Part shown: one piece after another, positions 1 through 17,330 of the stretch
How positions within the stretch are numbered: the first letter of the stretch is position 1
Layout of the letters: the number at the start of each line of letters is the position of its first letter
Source of the DNA: an uncultured Rhodocyclaceae bacterium
GTDB taxonomy: Bacteria > Pseudomonadota > Gammaproteobacteria > Burkholderiales > Rhodocyclaceae
Assembly (NCBI GenBank): GCA_934271525.1
Contig: CAKQRL010000001.1
Location: 184,314-248,313, forward strand
Reading direction: 5' to 3'
Length of the DNA stretch: 64,000 nucleotides
The notes under the pieces: generated by a model
What the model was told of the DNA's origin: nothing
What the model saw: the letters and a program-made list of their open reading frames with translations, nothing else
The model's database searches: none
Translations under genes and position numbers: made by a program

Positions 1-181
1 CAATGCTCACATTGTTGCCAACACAAACCGAAGGTGAAAAATCGTCATTGGGGGTGAATTGCAAACCCAAATTGGTAAAAGAATTTTCGCCCAAAACAAA
101 ACCTAGGCGATTTAAATAAACCTTGCGCACCACGGCATCGCCGTAATAAAAGGCAAGCATTTTGACAAAACGCATCGGCAT
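1..181 (-). CDS. hypothetical protein, N-terminal fragment running off the window start; a possible longer form starts at ATG 269-267 if the C tract length differs
   Basis: Minus-strand ORF from ATG at 181-179 (MPMRFVKMLAFYYGDAVVRKVYLNRLGF...) stays open to position 1. An upstream ATG at 269-267 has a GGAG Shine-Dalgarno 6 nt before it and overlaps the stop of the upstream gene (TAAATG). It is 88 nt from the 181 ATG, so it is out of frame at the current C12. Confidence 0.4.
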   Translation of the reverse strand, partial: MPMRFVKMLAFYYGDAVVRKVYLNRLGFVLGENSFTNLGLQFTPNDDFSPSVCVGNNVSI

Positions 182-246
182 TTTGTCGACATTTTTAAGC
201 AAAAAATCTTTTGCGAAATTATCAAGGCTATTTAAAAAGTGATTCT

Positions 247-258
247 GGGGGGGGGGGG
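247..258. repeat. homopolymeric G12 tract (C12 on the minus coding strand)
   Basis: Direct read: 12 consecutive G at 247-258. It is the longest G/C homopolymer in the window; no other exceeds 5. Confidence 0.9.
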
Positions 259-269
259 TTAAGATTCAT

Positions 270-1409
270 TTAACGCTCCGCGTGCAAAGTCAGCAAGGTA
301 ATTTCAGAAGGCACAAAAAAGCGCACGGAAAAACCGCTCCAAAGGCCAGTGCCGCGGCTAACATAAAGTTGCATTGTTTGAGAATTTTCAGTAGAAACAT
401 TGTAATGGCCGGCAACAAAGCCATCATTGAATGCCGCAACAATGGGTTGCAAGAAAAACATCAAACCGCCGTGCGTGTGGCCAGAGAGTTGCAAATCAAT
501 GCCGGCTAGCGCATTGTTTACCGCACCACGCGGTTGATGCGCCAATAGAATTTTAAAGGTTTTGGGCTCAATGTTTTTTAATGCTTGGTGAATATCGGGC
601 TTTGTGCCGCCAAAGCGCCCTTGGCTTGGGTCGGGCGTGCCAATAATCGCCAATTTTGCTTGGTTGATATTTAAAACGCGGTGTTCGTTATCCAACATTT
701 GAATTGGCGTTTTTTTGAAAAAATTGAGCCATTCCATCGCGCCTGCGTAATATTCGTGATTGCCCGTTACGCCAAAAACGCCATAGCGTGCGCGCAAATC
801 GTAAAAGGGCGCGACTTCGGATTCTAATTGTGCAACAGGCGCATCAACATAATCGCCTGTTAAAAGTATTAAATCCGGGTTTTGCGCGTTGGCGCGCGCC
901 ACAACTTCGGCAAGCCACGCTTTGTTTAATAATTTGTGAATATGCGTGTCGGTGATTTGAATAATTTTAAAACCGTTTAAATCAGGCGGTAGATTTTTAA
1001 AAGTTAAATCAACATGGCGAATGTTTGGCACACTAATGGCGGAAACGCCACTATAAAAACCTAAAATTAAAGCGGTAATAAAAAACAAAACCGCATTTTT
1101 TGTTTGTTTATGCCAAGAAAATGGGCGTTTGAATATTTTAAAAATAATTAAAATAACATCGCGCAAAATAATCATAAACAACAAAATTAAAACCGACCCC
1201 ATTAAACTTTCGGTTATAAACAAAAGGCTTTTGGGCAATGCGGGGTTAAAAAAATCACCAGCTAAAAAATAATAAATGGCATATTTGGAGAGCATTACCA
1301 AAATAACCATTGAAAATAAAAGTTTGGTTAAACGTGTGGATTGAAGTGGGTAAATAAACCGCCAAAAAATTAAAAGAAAAACAAGAAGGGATGGAATCAG
1401 TGTGAACAT
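270..1409 (-). CDS. membrane-anchored calcineurin-like metallophosphoesterase
   Basis: N-terminal hydrophobic segments followed by phosphoesterase motifs (ITDTH, GDYVD, GNHEY, GHTH). Confidence 0.75.
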   Translation of the reverse strand: MFTLIPSLLVFLLIFWRFIYPLQSTRLTKLLFSMVILVMLSKYAIYYFLAGDFFNPALPKSLLFITESLMGSVLILLFMIILRDVILIIFKIFKRPFSWHKQTKNAVLFFITALILGFYSGVSAISVPNIRHVDLTFKNLPPDLNGFKIIQITDTHIHKLLNKAWLAEVVARANAQNPDLILLTGDYVDAPVAQLESEVAPFYDLRARYGVFGVTGNHEYYAGAMEWLNFFKKTPIQMLDNEHRVLNINQAKLAIIGTPDPSQGRFGGTKPDIHQALKNIEPKTFKILLAHQPRGAVNNALAGIDLQLSGHTHGGLMFFLQPIVAAFNDGFVAGHYNVSTENSQTMQLYVSRGTGLWSGFSVRFFVPSEITLLTLHAER

Positions 1410-2326: not shown

Positions 2327-2968
2327 TTACATTCCTAATGATTTTAAAAGCTCGTTGTGATTTTCCGCGGTTTTCTTTTTGTGGTTTTTTTTGGGCAAAG
2401 GCTGGGCGGCAGGGGATTTTTGCAGTGGAATAAAGCTAACATCATCCATTGCCAATTCCACGTAAAACACGTGGTTGTTGCCGGTGTAAAAGGAAATGCG
2501 GCGCGCTTGCGGATGGTCTAAATTGGTATCGACTCGCAACATCACTTCCTTATTCAACACCAACATTTTGGGTTGGCTTTGCGTGATATTGGTGTGCAAA
2601 TCGGCTTCAATGCGGCGCGTGAAGTCGCCCACCATTTGGTTTAACAATTCGCCCATCACGTTTGCCACTTCTGCTGCCGTGTGTGAATGCGCCAACTCGT
2701 TGTTTGGAAAACCCATGTTGGAGAGATATTTGCTGTAAAGCTCCATTGCCGCATCGGCTGAAAAATTGATGACAACCAAACCCGAAAAACCGCCATCAAA
2801 TAACACAAAAGAGGCAATATCCGGTTTTAAGCAGGTTTTTTGAATCACTTGAACCATTGGCGAATAGCGCACGCAGTCGTTGGTGGCGGTGTTTAAAACA
2901 TTGGTTACCGATTCGCACAAATTCAACAAAACGTCTTCCACACCGCGAACGGCAGAATTATTGGGCAT
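2327..2968 (-). CDS. hypothetical protein, possibly CheX-like, co-transcribed between the dynamin-like GTPase and era
   Basis: ORF abuts the era start (stop at 2327, era start at 2326). Likely start is MPNNSAVRG. Weak resemblance to CheC/CheX-type motifs (EVANVMGELLNQMVGD). Function uncertain. Confidence 0.4.
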   Translation of the reverse strand: MPNNSAVRGVEDVLLNLCESVTNVLNTATNDCVRYSPMVQVIQKTCLKPDIASFVLFDGGFSGLVVINFSADAAMELYSKYLSNMGFPNNELAHSHTAAEVANVMGELLNQMVGDFTRRIEADLHTNITQSQPKMLVLNKEVMLRVDTNLDHPQARRISFYTGNNHVFYVELAMDDVSFIPLQKSPAAQPLPKKNHKKKTAENHNELLKSLGM

Positions 2969-2972
2969 TGTT

Positions 2973-4961
2973 TTATCCTTTCTCACTTTCCAAACTTGGA
3001 CGAAATAACGCAATGATACGCCGACTCATCTTGTGAAATTCTTCAATTTTTTGTTCAGTTTCTTTGCAACGCGCATGCACATCGTTTAAGCGTTCTTCCA
3101 AGGAATTGGTTGCTTTGTGAATGCGAGATAGGGCTTCAACTCTGCGTTCCAACTGCTGTTCATATTCCCGCACCTGCGCTTCCAAAGGAATGATGATGCT
3201 ATCCAACCACACGGCGCAATCGCTGTTGGTTTTTTCAACCACATGCCGAACGCTCAATGTGACTTCTTCAAAAAAACGTTGGGTAACTTTTCGTTTGTCT
3301 TGGGTTAAAAGACTCAAGGTTGAATTGGTATGTTTGGCGCACCACAAGTGCAAACGCCCCACTTCTTTTTCGCAACGGCGCAAATCAAAAGCGGCAGGTG
3401 GTGGAATTTGTAAGCCGTATTCTTTGGCGAATTTTTCGTAAGCGCTGGTAATGAGCGCGTGGATTTTTTTAATCTCTTCTTCTGCCGCCCAAAGCACATC
3501 CAACACGCGCCCGAAGTAAACTTCCATTGCGCCGGCTAAATGCTTGGAAAATGCGCCACTCAACATCACTTTTCTGGTTGTTTGCGTCAATTGCCGCAAT
3601 TTTTCCACATCCAAATTGCTTTGCAAATGGCGCACGCGGTCGGCAAAAACCTTGCGCATGGCATCCAAATAATTCACACTTTCGGCAAATTTTTTGCGTT
3701 CAAATTGTATGCGGTTGAGCATATAAGTAACGGCATTTTTGTTTTTGCCGCTTAATTCTTCCAATTCAAAGCATTGTTCTTTGAAATTATCTAAGCGAGA
3801 TGCCAACACGCCTTGAATAAAACCGAAGATATCGTTTAATTCCGCCTGCGCATTACTTTTGACCAAATCGTATTGGTCGGGCAAAAGCGAGTTGGAAAGC
3901 GTATTTTCTAATTCTTTTAAGCGCGAACGGGCAAGCAGTTGGGCATCGTTTTTAACCTTGGCAACCAAGGCTTTGTGCGCTGAGACGGCAAAAATTTGCG
4001 TTGGTGGAATTTCCAAAATCTGCGCGCAGTTGGCGGCTTGTTGTGCGATGATTTTGTTGATTTCCTCTTCTGTTTTGAGTTCGTCCCACAAGCTATCAAT
4101 TTTGTTTAAAACAACAATTTTTCCGGCATGACCAGTTTTGGTTTGTGCGCAAATATGCTCGCGCCACACGGTTAAATCCGATTGTGTAACGCCTGCGTCA
4201 GCTGCCAAAACAAAAAGCGTGGCGTGCGCCGAGGGCAACAAAGACAAAGTCAATTCAGGTTCAGCGCCAATGGCATTCAAACCGGGCGTGTCCAAAATCA
4301 CCAACCCTTGGCGAAGTAATGGATGCGGAAAATTAATCAAAGCGTGCCGCCAACGCGGAATTTCCACTTGGTTGTTTTCATCAATTTGAAATAGCTTATT
4401 TGAAGTGTTGTTGGCATCATCCCCGATATCAAAACCCAAACGGCGCGCTTCATCCACCGGCACGCGAATGGTTTCTTGCACGTGTTGCAGAGCGGCGGAT
4501 AAAGATTGCGCAGAATCAATATTGATTCCAATAAAATGCCAAGCGTCTTTTTGCTGGCGATAATCGCTCACATTGCCGTCTGTGGCGCGGGTTTGAATAG
4601 GCAAAAGTTCCACGCCGTGCGGTTTTTTAACGTCAAAAAATAATTCCGTTGGGCACATTGTTGTGCGGCCGGCGGAAGACGGCAAAATGCGACTGCCGTA
4701 ATCGGAAAAGAAAATGGCGTTAATCAACTCCGATTTGCCGCGCGAAAACTCCGCCACAAAGGCAATCATCAATCGGTCGGCGCGCAGGCGCGCCAAGAGA
4801 TTTTTTAAGCGTTCTTCAATTTGCGCATCTGATAAGCCATTTTCTGCCAAGCGTTCGCGAAAAATTTCAATGCGGGAAGTCAAGGCGCCGCGCCATTCGG
4901 TATATTCGTCAAATTTTTTTGAGAGCGACATCATTGATAAGCGTGAAGATTTTTTTTTCAT
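2973..4961 (-). CDS. bacterial dynamin-like GTPase
   Basis: 662 aa. N-terminal GTPase motifs (FSRGKSELINAIF = G1, DTPG, NKID) followed by long coiled-coil-like helical regions. Size and architecture fit the BDLP/CrfC/LeoA class. Confidence 0.7.
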   Translation of the reverse strand: MKKKSSRLSMMSLSKKFDEYTEWRGALTSRIEIFRERLAENGLSDAQIEERLKNLLARLRADRLMIAFVAEFSRGKSELINAIFFSDYGSRILPSSAGRTTMCPTELFFDVKKPHGVELLPIQTRATDGNVSDYRQQKDAWHFIGINIDSAQSLSAALQHVQETIRVPVDEARRLGFDIGDDANNTSNKLFQIDENNQVEIPRWRHALINFPHPLLRQGLVILDTPGLNAIGAEPELTLSLLPSAHATLFVLAADAGVTQSDLTVWREHICAQTKTGHAGKIVVLNKIDSLWDELKTEEEINKIIAQQAANCAQILEIPPTQIFAVSAHKALVAKVKNDAQLLARSRLKELENTLSNSLLPDQYDLVKSNAQAELNDIFGFIQGVLASRLDNFKEQCFELEELSGKNKNAVTYMLNRIQFERKKFAESVNYLDAMRKVFADRVRHLQSNLDVEKLRQLTQTTRKVMLSGAFSKHLAGAMEVYFGRVLDVLWAAEEEIKKIHALITSAYEKFAKEYGLQIPPPAAFDLRRCEKEVGRLHLWCAKHTNSTLSLLTQDKRKVTQRFFEEVTLSVRHVVEKTNSDCAVWLDSIIIPLEAQVREYEQQLERRVEALSRIHKATNSLEERLNDVHARCKETEQKIEEFHKMSRRIIALFRPSLESEKG

Positions 4962-11403: not shown

Positions 11404-11836
11404 CGCCTTTCTCCAAAAGTTCAGCGGCTTTTTGCAAAGCCTTTGAATCAGGTGTTGTGGCGGCAATGCGTTGGTTGCGTTTTTTGAAATAAAGCAAAAA
11501 AGCAATGAAACCGATGGCAAAAAAAACAGCAGGCGCTGCCCACAAAATCAGCGTGTTGGTTTTTACGGGCGGGTTGTAGCGCACAAAATCGCCGTAGCGT
11601 TCAGTCATAAAATCCAAAATTTGTGCGTCCGTTTTGCCGGTTTGAATCATCACACGGATTTCGTTTTTCAAATCCGTTGCCAAATCGGCATCCGAATCGG
11701 CAATGCTTTGGTTTTGGCACACCAAACAACGCAATTCGCTGGATAATTTTAAAAGCCGCGAGTCGGCATCATCAGGTGTTTGCGCAAACACCAAAAATGG
11801 GAAAAAAACGAATAAAAACAAAAGATTAAGACGCAT
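11396..11836 (-). CDS. ccmH: cytochrome c-type biogenesis protein CcmH
   Basis: Signal peptide plus LRCxxC motif (LRCLVCQNQSIADSDA). Confidence 0.8.
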   Translation of the reverse strand: MRLNLLFLFVFFPFLVFAQTPDDADSRLLKLSSELRCLVCQNQSIADSDADLATDLKNEIRVMIQTGKTDAQILDFMTERYGDFVRYNPPVKTNTLILWAAPAVFFAIGFIAFLLYFKKRNQRIAATTPDSKALQKAAELLEKGDE

Positions 11837-15741: not shown

Positions 15742-16407
15742 CTATTCTAAGGCTAATTTTAAAGCGGCGGCACAGGCAAAGGGCGACAAAGAAAAAGCAG
15801 CAAGTGCCATTGCGGCAATTAAGGACAAATGCGCATCAAAAGCCATTTGGTCAAGTGCGGCATCTACTGCCAGCGCACCAAAGATTAAAACGGGAATATA
15901 CAAAGGCAAAATAATCAAAGACACCAACACGCCGCTTGATCGCAAACCCAAAGTTAGCGCAGCACCAATTGTGCCGATGGCTGATAACGCTGGCGTGCCG
16001 ATTAAAAGCGTTAGCATTAAAACAAGCAAAGCATCAAAAGGCAAATCAAATTGAATGCCCAAAATTGGAGCGATAACACCCAATGGCACGCCTGATAATA
16101 ACCAATGCGCCGTTGTTTTTGCCAACACCACAAAAGGCAAGGGCAAAGGCGACAAAGCCATTTGCGCCAGTGTGCCGTCAGCAAAATCATCCGCAAAAAG
16201 CCGAGGCAACGACAACAAAGTTGCAAGTAGTGCGGCAACCCACAAAATGCCCGGCGCCAAACGTTGCAACAGTTTTAAATCGGCACCAACGGCAAGCGGA
16301 AAAAGGCTTGCAACCATTATGAAGAAAAACAAAATCGCCCAAATGTCTGCGGCTCTTCGGCACGCCAACAAAAAATCCCGCGCGATGATTTTCAAAAAAA
16401 TGGCCAT
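15742..16407 (-). CDS. ccmB: heme exporter permease CcmB
   Basis: About 221 aa from MAIFLKIIARDF. The track ORF's 48-codon N-terminal extension runs into the repeat array. Confidence 0.8.
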   Translation of the reverse strand: MAIFLKIIARDFLLACRRAADIWAILFFFIMVASLFPLAVGADLKLLQRLAPGILWVAALLATLLSLPRLFADDFADGTLAQMALSPLPLPFVVLAKTTAHWLLSGVPLGVIAPILGIQFDLPFDALLVLMLTLLIGTPALSAIGTIGAALTLGLRSSGVLVSLIILPLYIPVLIFGALAVDAALDQMAFDAHLSLIAAMALAAFSLSPFACAAALKLALE

Positions 16408-16697
16408 TGTTAAAATTTTTTTTGGTCTACCGTGGAAAAGCGCCGATTCTACGAAAAAACAGCGGTTTTTTAAAAAAAATCGGCGTTTACCGTGGAAAAA
16501 CGCGCTTGAAACGAATTGGCTGAAACGTTTTTTAAAAAATGTGGTTTTCAATGAAAACGCCGATTTTAACGAATCAAAAAAGCAGAAAACGAGATTTTGC
16601 GCGTTTGTTTTTCAAAAAAAATTTTTGTTTACCGTGGAAAAACGCCGATTTTAAAGAATCAAAAAATTAAAAAAAGCGTGTTTTGAAAGCGATTTTT
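16408..16697. repeat. tandem array of about 3-4 degenerate direct repeat units, each headed by TACCGTGGAAAA(A/G)CGCCGATT(T/C)TA...GAATCAAAAAA, inside the ccm operon
   Basis: Three same-orientation copies of the core 12-mer (about 16426, 16487, 16626), plus a fourth unit lacking the core (about 16545), in a 290-bp non-coding gap between ccmA and ccmB. Confidence 0.85.
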
Positions 16698-17330
16698 TTA
16701 ATGTGGCGATTTTAAGCGCAAATGCTTCATCGGTGCGCTGGCGGGTTTTAGTCCGTCTATTTTTTGGTGGGAAGTAAAAACCAACAAGCCGCCATTTGCC
16801 GAATGCGCGTTGATTTTTGCAACAAGCCATTCCAATGCTTGCGAATCCAATGCAACAAAGGGTTCATCCAACACCCACAAGCAGCGCGTATCAAAAGCCA
16901 AGCGCGATAAGGCAACGCGCCGTTTTTGCCCTTGGGATAAAAATTTGGCGGGCACATCCAAACGTTTTTTTAAATTGAGCGCACAAAGCGATTGCACTGC
17001 CACATCCAAATGCAAGGCAATGCCTGCAATTTCGGCAGATATTTGCAAGTTTTCCAACGGCGTCAATTCTTCTTTGATGGCGTTGGAATGCCCGATAAAA
17101 CAAAGGTTTTCTTTAAAATCGGGTGATTGGGCAATAGGCACATTGTTCCACAACACGCCTCCAGAATCGGGCGTGGCAAGTCCCAACAAAATGCGCATTA
17201 AGGTTGATTTGCCTGCGCCATTTTCGCCTTCAATGTGTAGCATTTCGCCTGCGGCAAGCGAAAAACATACGTTGTTAAAGAGCGGCAGCGCGCCTCGCCA
17301 ACAAGAAATATCCTGTCCACACAACTGCAT
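16698..17330 (-). CDS. ccmA: cytochrome c biogenesis ATP-binding export protein CcmA
   Basis: ABC ATPase (GENGAGKSTL, LSQGQKRR, VLDEP). Start set at MQLCGQ to match the CcmA length. The track start is a GTG inside the repeat core. Confidence 0.8.
   Translation of the reverse strand: MQLCGQDISCWRGALPLFNNVCFSLAAGEMLHIEGENGAGKSTLMRILLGLATPDSGGVLWNNVPIAQSPDFKENLCFIGHSNAIKEELTPLENLQISAEIAGIALHLDVAVQSLCALNLKKRLDVPAKFLSQGQKRRVALSRLAFDTRCLWVLDEPFVALDSQALEWLVAKINAHSANGGLLVFTSHQKIDGLKPASAPMKHLRLKSPH

Follow-up and report, generated by a model that had tools for sequence, protein, structure and literature searches.

The stretch of DNA examined here, 64,000 nucleotides (nt) of contig CAKQRL010000001.1 from an uncultured Rhodocyclaceae bacterium (hereafter the window), begins with the 5' part of a hexapeptide-repeat acetyltransferase gene that is read on the minus strand and contains a run of twelve cytosines within its first codons. 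The length of this tract differs between closely related assemblies with conserved flanks, and the tract most probably (a probability of roughly 85%) acts as a contingency locus, at which slipped-strand mispairing toggles translation of the full-length acetyltransferase. The original prediction, made from the letters of the window, had described a gene whose phase varies by strand slippage and whose long form is OFF at C12, and this description is borne out by a variable tract, by natural ON and OFF alleles and by a conserved open reading frame (ORF). Judged from its reading frame, the C12 allele carried by the window is OFF.

The tract is a G12 run on the plus strand, equivalent to C12 on the coding strand, where the layout is ...GCGGAGCGTTAAATGAATCTTAA-C12-AGAATCACTTTTTAAATAG.... 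The GC content of the window is 44%, and the number of G/C runs falls off with length from 118 runs of 4 nt to 15 of 5 nt and 1 of 6 nt, after which the 12-mer stands alone. A model of independent and identically distributed bases gave an expectation of 0.0013 runs of at least 12 nt in 64 kb, which together with the fall-off in run length indicates that the tract is not a product of chance. Its position is also that of a switch, as a G/C homopolymer of at least about 8 nt within the 5' coding region is characteristic of such genes and C12 here occupies codons 4–8. Translation of the C12 allele from the ATG at position 269 (ATG-269) gives MNLNPPPPESLFK followed by a TAG stop at 230–228, and the frame of a second ATG at position 181 (ATG-181) is open back through the tract and leaves the window at residue 89. 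All of the sequence statements of the original prediction were checked and found to be correct, including the TAAATG junction, the GGAG motif 6 nt before ATG-269, the early closure of the ATG-269 frame, the open ATG-181 frame and the tract as the only long G/C homopolymer, with no other run exceeding 6 nt in the 64 kb. Because the TAA stop of the upstream metallophosphoesterase gene abuts the start of the acetyltransferase gene, the two genes probably share a transcript and are coupled in translation. A scan of the whole window against Rfam returned no family at threshold, indicating that no riboswitch or leader RNA is present at the site.

The remainder of the acetyltransferase gene was obtained by an exact-protein look-up with the metallophosphoesterase, which returned many human-associated metagenome contigs that carry the same locus and extend beyond the window edge. 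These loci were labelled L001–L036 and provided ~25 independent assemblies of the same species in which the tract was resolved. The metallophosphoesterase product was identical or near-identical among the compared contigs wherever it was included. Sample labels such as NIEL14, ZEEV15, LOKM19, VALL22 and BOND22 look like the names of human gut cohorts. The GuaA protein of the host, a betaproteobacterium, has identical counterparts among metagenome and MAG proteins only, and its nearest named relatives are Rhodocyclaceae such as Azoarcus, Azospira and Propionivibrio, with about 75% identity. The completed acetyltransferase contains 177 amino acids (aa) when in frame and 148 aa when called from ATG-181. 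The gene was called at 177 aa from ATG-269 in L001, while most other calls were of 148 aa (ATG-181) or 146 aa (the next methionine), and in the public protein collection the 177/178-aa forms were present on 6 contigs compared with about 30 for the 146/148-aa call. The protein scored over the gathering score for the Pfam families Hexapep (E=8e-11) and Hexapep_2 (E=1e-7), the AlphaFold2 model contained a β-helix and the top structural matches were all left-handed β-helix acetyltransferases. The downstream ORF, which the original prediction allowed might prove short or non-coding, is instead a 177-aa hexapeptide acetyltransferase under purifying selection. No source in a cluster look-up assigned a name to these proteins, and a search of genome contigs with the long form gave a sole match, from an unrelated member of the Anaerolineales, with 39% identity.

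An invariant tract would have argued against a switch, as had been recognised beforehand, but in the ~25 assemblies the tract spans C11–C16, often on identical flanks. Allele counts are approximate. The most frequent length was C13 (10 assemblies), followed by C12 (5 assemblies, with the window counted), C15 (3–4 assemblies) and C16 (1 assembly), all of which are OFF, with translation ending after 12–14 codons. The gene is ON in one assembly with C11 (L001, 177 aa) and in one with C14 and a normal T5 run on the 3' side of the tract (L034, 178 aa), these being the two lengths for which a continuous protein had been predicted. A third assembly, L033, is also ON (178 aa) and has one flanking A read as C, so that the total length equals that of C14. 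C14 combined with a T5 run shortened to T4 was found in 5 assemblies and is OFF. The reading frame thus changes with the length of the tract, and alleles of both states, ON and OFF, are found in nature. Two aberrant longer calls were obtained, from L028 (C20, with altered flanking bases) and from L035. In L035, at about 2860–2925, a long poly-G run is followed by 10 N's and then by C19 at the tract, a scaffolding artefact typical of long G/C runs.

Comparison of the flanking sequences placed several tract lengths on the same background. Ten sequences with 0 single nucleotide polymorphisms (SNPs) over about 1640 bp of flank included C12, C13 and C14, and C11 and C15 were present on backgrounds 1–2 SNPs from this group. 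A second haplotype group without internal SNPs contained C13 and C14, and a third contained C13, C15 and C16. Mutation of the tract is thus far faster than the build-up of base substitutions. Nine control homopolymers (six A8/T8, one G5, one C5 and one C6), for which 6–23 assemblies were comparable per run, each had a single length, compared with five lengths for the C tract within the same comparison, and the variation of the tract is thus more than general assembly noise. Contigs L008, L009 and L019 break at or beside the tract and L020 begins about 50 nt downstream of it, which hints at switching within populations.

The change from T5 to T4 at window positions 234–238 was present in L005, L010, L016, L017 and L018, always together with C14. 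On this background the in-frame lengths shift to C12 and C15, either of which would restore the frame with a slightly different N-terminal tip (PPPPESLLNS...). From its sequence the C14-with-T4 lineage looks like an ON-length allele in which another slip, within the T5 run, turned the gene off, and the five assemblies, which have 0 flank SNPs, are probably one circulating clone.

Several points weigh against the tract being a contingency locus. The combination of C14 and T4 is shared exactly by five assemblies, showing that the tract can stay stable across related samples. In-frame tracts were found in 3 of the 25 resolved assemblies compared with 1/3 expected for neutral lengths (binomial p=0.015), or p=0.046 once the probable C14-with-T4 clone was collapsed, with contigs that are not fully independent samples; this deficit fits selection for the OFF state, but it also fits a mostly silent gene. 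The differences between assemblies could in part be consensus miscalls at a long G/C homopolymer. There is also no partner for glycan synthesis (FdtA or DegT) within about 75 kb of the acetyltransferase gene. In favour of a contingency locus, the in-frame minority is consistent with a switch kept OFF most of the time in the niche sampled, with the same limit on the independence of the contigs.

Beyond the tract the gene gives every sign of being maintained. From codon 16 to the stop (162 codons) the ORF is intact in 31 of 31 readable loci. Between the window lineage and the most divergent lineage (L028) there are 11 synonymous differences and 1 nonsynonymous difference, giving a ratio of nonsynonymous to synonymous polymorphism (pN/pS) of 0.03, compared with 0.22–0.35 for the neighbouring metallophosphoesterase gene in the same lineage comparisons. 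This substitution pattern indicates that the ORF is under purifying selection and is not a pseudogene.

Such strong purifying selection, although the consensus alleles are mostly out of frame, gives some encouragement to the idea that the tract works as a dimmer, with RNA-polymerase slippage or re-initiation at ATG-181 supplying some enzyme from out-of-frame alleles and the tract length setting the level of expression. Residual enzyme of this kind would help to explain the strong constraint despite a mostly OFF consensus. The short ORF of the OFF allele stops 46 nt before ATG-181, a distance that speaks for re-initiation, and in bacteria RNA polymerase is known to slip on long homopolymers, mainly A/T runs. 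On the other hand, ATG-181 has no Shine-Dalgarno sequence and the short form would be without a conserved and confidently predicted helix. A dimmer is compatible with the contingency locus and was considered possible, if rather unlikely.

The alternative that the gene is being lost, with the tract as a mutational hotspot that inactivates an acetyltransferase acquired earlier and no adaptive switching, is improbable. Such loss would account for the approximately 85% of assemblies that are out of frame, for the second frameshift (in the T5 run) in one lineage and for the lack of partner glycan genes nearby. It does not account for the ORF past the tract being intact in every readable locus, nor for 11 synonymous against 0–1 nonsynonymous differences, a tighter constraint than on the neighbouring gene and one that is unexpected for a pseudogene. 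The in-frame alleles are moreover of two lengths and occur on two haplotype backgrounds (L001; L033 and L034). The pseudogene explanation was rejected on the dN/dS result.

The identity of the true start was examined using homologues of the 177-aa form. A database search gave 1126 homologues, and among the matches listed nearly all were of 166–201 aa and covered 92–96% of the query; of the 30 database proteins that were aligned, which include P0001 from the same species, 28 contain 169–201 aa. In the 31-sequence alignment the region before Met30, the residue encoded by ATG-181, is homologous and partly conserved, with the consensus L-x3-D-x-F-I-x2-F-L-x-K-x-V-D and conserved positions at D16, F22-L23, K25 and V27-D28. 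Conservation starts directly past the proline run, and the internal residues M30 and P31 show conservation of at least 90%. The AlphaFold2 model of the long form had a mean predicted local distance difference test (pLDDT) score of 94.7, with residues 1–6 predicted as coil followed by helices at 7–25, 32–41 and 45–54 and then the β-helix; helix 7–25 is exclusive to the long form. The differences of the L028 lineage before Met30 are, in the long-form frame, 2 synonymous and 1 conservative (Leu to Ile). Because homologues align upstream of Met30, Met30-Pro31 is an internal motif and the start signals are at ATG-269, the sequences indicate that the long form is the ancestral full-length protein and that the 148-aa form is a gene-caller product of out-of-frame alleles. 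The ON product would accordingly correspond to the full-length form of the family, from an ORF that is otherwise maintained. The nearest relative, P0002 (80% identical, on a 624-bp contig), starts with MKSLLSQKFLEKID... (MKSLLSQKF...) and has no homopolymer, which indicates that the tract is an acquisition specific to this lineage, placed in a poorly conserved N-terminal tip.

These results bear on a further alternative, in which the gene truly starts at ATG-181 (148 aa) and the tract lies in its promoter or 5' leader, where its length would tune transcription and not the reading frame. The original prediction had offered a promoter of the ATG-181 form as a fallback, and had regarded a start at 181 alone as evidence against a switch. 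Most gene callers do give the 148-aa (or 146-aa) form, and in the majority of natural alleles ATG-269 is out of frame while the ORF is still strongly conserved. However, homologues reach about 20–25 residues before Met30 with conserved positions, the predicted helix 7–25 would be lost in the short form, and the few changes before Met30 in the L028 lineage are of the kind expected under the long-form frame. No Shine-Dalgarno sequence or GGAG-like motif occurs in the bases that precede ATG-181 (AAAAATGTCGACAAA), whereas ATG-269 has GGAG at ideal spacing. A promoter scan of the coding strand from the upstream stop to ATG-181 detected no sigma-70-like site, a weak negative as the scan overall was no richer than shuffled sequence. 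The fallback is therefore unsupported, and a start at ATG-181 is very improbable. That the length differences are sequencing or assembly artefacts around a fixed tract is scarcely credible, for although Illumina is error-prone at long G/C runs and both the L035 scaffold artefact and the aberrant C20 of L028 fall at the tract site, the six lengths (11–16) come from many studies and assemblers, lengths recur in related samples (C14 with T4 in five, C13 in ten), unique sequence flanks the tract on both sides in every contig and the control homopolymers do not vary, and on this last test the artefact explanation was rejected.

In the contingency locus proposed here, replication slippage would add or remove cytosines at codons 4–8. 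With the T5 run present, ATG-269 is in frame at C11 and C14, as it should be, on the same reasoning, at any length of 3n+2. The resulting 177- and 178-aa enzymes would differ by one proline in a disordered N-terminal tip, and at other lengths an early stop would turn the full-length enzyme off. Slippage would be frequent and reversible within a clone. The enzyme would acetylate a sugar of a surface glycan, so that switching may vary a surface structure that is exposed to host immunity or phage. The features of the locus are listed in Table 1.

Table 1. Features of the acetyltransferase locus in the window (positions are those of the window; contigs L001–L036 are the metagenome loci described in the text).
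Feature	Position	Strand	Remarks
Hexapeptide (left-handed β-helix) acetyltransferase gene, 5' part	1..269	-	In-frame residues 1–89; remainder recovered from L001–L036
ATG of Met30 (ATG-181)	179..181	-	Internal codon of the family protein; chosen as start (148 aa) only in out-of-frame alleles
TAG ending the 13-codon OFF-frame peptide of the C12 allele	228..230	-	Sequence reading
T5 run	234..238	-	8 nt 3' of the tract; T4 variant in five assemblies, with C14
Poly-C tract, proposed hypermutable switch	247..258	-	Third base of codon 4 to codon 8 of the long-form acetyltransferase ORF
ATG start of full-length (177/178 aa) acetyltransferase (ATG-269)	267..269	-	Abuts upstream stop (TAAATG); called start in in-frame L001/L022, L033 and L034
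GGAG Shine-Dalgarno	276..279	-	6-nt spacer to ATG-269; within the 3' end of the metallophosphoesterase gene; read from sequence
Metallophosphoesterase gene, 379 aa	270..1409	-	TAA stop at 272–270; Pfam Metallophos E=4e-15

The acetyltransferase was compared with characterised hexapeptide enzymes using profile and fold searches. The profile matches included LacA (1kqa) at E=3.8e-22, with the maltose/galactoside O-acetyltransferases as the best family, and Foldseek gave TM-scores of 0.55–0.64 with 1kru, 1ocx and 3srt. The protein resembles Maa and LacA in its similar length and in having N-terminal helices followed by the β-helix, but its scores are far under the NCBIfam equivalog cut-offs (51 bits against 347 for LacA, 38 against 314 for Maa and 38 against 192 for WcaF). 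A further difference concerns the active site. In LacA the catalytic histidine is His115, located in the loop that follows coil 3, and the residue aligned with it here is Ala100, at a variable position. No histidine is invariant among the 31 aligned sequences, and the sole histidine of the acetyltransferase is residue 10. Within residues 96–104, which lie past the window edge (L001 about 11426–11452), Ser99 and Asn102-Asn103 are invariant. The absence of the catalytic histidine from the aligned sequences suggests a base-independent mechanism that may possibly be N-acetylating. Some hexapeptide N-acetyltransferases of the Fdt and Qdt pathways act without a catalytic base. The match to QdtC (3fs8, E=4.7e-18) is confined to the C-terminal coils (residues 120–171), and the N-terminal architecture differs.

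A gene for the 3,4-ketoisomerase FdtA adjoins the acetyltransferase gene in all three homologues for which loci were fetched, namely P0003 and P0004 (62–63% identical) and P0100 (47%). The clusters of P0003 and P0004 also contain a DegT-type aminotransferase and GT2 glycosyltransferases, with an ATP-grasp enzyme in addition in P0004, and that of P0100 contains a sugar formyltransferase, a Wzx-type flippase and GT1 glycosyltransferases. By analogy, these clusters suggest that the enzyme may N-acetylate a 3-amino-3,6-dideoxyhexose for a surface glycan. Searches of the window and flanks with tblastn for the FdtA, DegT, ATP-grasp and GT2 partners gave none, so that the pathway context of the homologues is not transferable, and the about 75 kb around the gene contains no FdtC/QdtC-like adjacency to an FdtA/QdtA isomerase and a DegT aminotransferase.

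The P0100 homologue, from an organism of 32% GC, starts TTG-G10-TAT (L042 5001–5015). Its polysaccharide locus (Wzx, formyltransferase, two FdtA, GT1) contains other poly-G tracts at L042 1383–1392, 2136–2147 and 5939–5949, also found in L043–L045, and these vary between contigs over G8–G10, G10–G12 and G8–G11. A hexapeptide gene neighbouring that of P0100 was called at 140, 157 or 179 aa. The G10 of P0100 and the tract of the window together indicate that the enzyme family has gained a 5' homopolymer at least twice.

Among documented systems the closest is NeuO, the hexapeptide polysialic-acid O-acetyltransferase of the Escherichia coli K1 prophage CUS-3, in which a slipped-strand repeat shortly after the start sets the gene on or off (PMC3046976). 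Both enzymes are left-handed β-helix acetyltransferases whose flexible N-terminal extension is encoded by the repeat and varies in length with it (PMC3046976). They differ in that the catalytic histidine of NeuO (His147 in the crystallised variant; PMC3046976) has no equivalent here. The NeuO repeat is the heptanucleotide AAGACTC, present in 2–93 copies with activity increasing with the number of heptads, whereas the repeat here is a mononucleotide C that adds at most one proline. NeuO is borne on a prophage, whereas the present gene is chromosomal and in an operon with the metallophosphoesterase gene. The target of NeuO is a surface glycan, and by analogy that of the present enzyme may be one too; NeuO (3jqy) is itself a profile match of the acetyltransferase family (E=3.6e-13).

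Similar tracts are familiar from Campylobacter jejuni, Neisseria (lgt, pgl) and Haemophilus, where glycan-modifying enzymes carry a G/C homopolymer of about 8–15 nt in the 5' coding region. In these contingency genes ON and OFF depend on the frame, and the length is polymorphic between near-identical strains. The type of tract, its position and the frame logic are the same here, and the G10 of P0100 sits in a multi-tract polysaccharide locus of this kind. The present case differs in coming from an uncultured human-gut betaproteobacterium that is not known as a pathogen and in which the gene stands apart from any glycan cluster. The wciZ gene of Streptococcus pneumoniae encodes a membrane acyltransferase and contains a TA dinucleotide repeat. 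In serotypes 15B/15C, O-acetylation of the capsule is reversibly lost by slipped-strand mispairing in this acetyltransferase gene (PMC4432689). The host in that case is Gram-positive. Literature searches directed at acetyltransferases that vary in phase through poly-G tracts, and at phase variation by homopolymers in gut metagenomes, did not uncover any account of the present locus, which is a new example of an established type of homopolymer switch, in an uncultured gut commensal and with unusually good evidence from natural populations.

The acetyltransferase gene is best explained as the final gene of an operon with the metallophosphoesterase gene. The metallophosphoesterase has an N-terminal region followed by a calcineurin-like phosphoesterase domain from about residue 147, and its matches to LpxG and YaeI were under the curated cut-offs. 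On the other side, a bidirectional terminator hairpin separates the acetyltransferase gene from a convergent type IVa pilin gene, past which are oligopeptidase A, rpmB/rpmG and a type II-C CRISPR-Cas9 locus. The interval from rpmG to cas2-cas1-cas9 varies among L001–L004 (about 15900–17200), with 2 additional small ORFs in L002 and a different ORF of 181 aa in L003. Within the window, a 662-aa dynamin-like GTPase (Pfam Dynamin_N) and a 213/228-aa DUF3334/CheX-like protein are encoded at 2327–4961, upstream of era; neither matched an NCBIfam model. Comparison of the type IVa pilin of L001 (11801–12313) with that of L024 and other contigs showed that 17 of its 170 residues distinguish the two main lineages; 16 of these lie in the C-terminal half. 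For the adjacent acetyltransferase the number is 0–1.

A second variable homopolymer was observed between the type IV pilin and oligopeptidase A genes, at L001 12408–12416, just beyond window position 1, with equivalents in L002–L036. Its lengths were G8, G9, G10, G11, G13, G14 and G15, with G19 at the contig end in L005 and an interrupted G5AG7 in L003. On the pilin strand the tract ends about 38 nt before a sigma-54-like element (TGGCAT-N7-TGCT) and about 95 nt before the pilin ATG. It may switch the phase or the level of pilin transcription. In the fim genes of Bordetella pertussis, which have a sigma-70 promoter, the C-stretch is situated between the -10 element and the site of the activator. 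Changes of a single C in the promoter C-stretch of fim2/fim3 are reported to alter fimbrial expression (PMC1891110, PMC10172299). These genes share with the present locus a variable G/C homopolymer 5' of a fimbrial or pilin promoter in a betaproteobacterium; they differ in that the tract here is followed, about 38 nt downstream, by the sigma-54-like -24/-12 element of the type IVa pilin. It is conceivable, though doubtful, that the two tracts form a two-switch module, in which the pilin tract would set transcription via the spacing of a sigma-54 promoter and the acetyltransferase tract would set the acetylation of a pilin-linked or other glycan, giving four or more surface states, with the enzyme as part of a histidine-less branch that has a three-helix N-domain and acts on 3-amino-3,6-dideoxyhexoses.

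Homopolymer contingency loci are textbook features of mucosal pathogens and are poorly documented in uncultured gut commensals. The locus is trackable in public metagenomes, where the tract length could report the selection acting on a surface structure in each sample, for example by immunoglobulin A (IgA) or phage, and could allow strains to be told apart quickly in studies of transmission. In routine gene calling such genes are mis-annotated, being given a truncated N-terminus (148 instead of 177 aa), and assemblies tend to break at the tract. The histidine-less family, with its helical N-domain and its recurrence beside FdtA, is a reasonable biochemical target. If the two-switch module were true, a gut commensal would gain four or more surface states.

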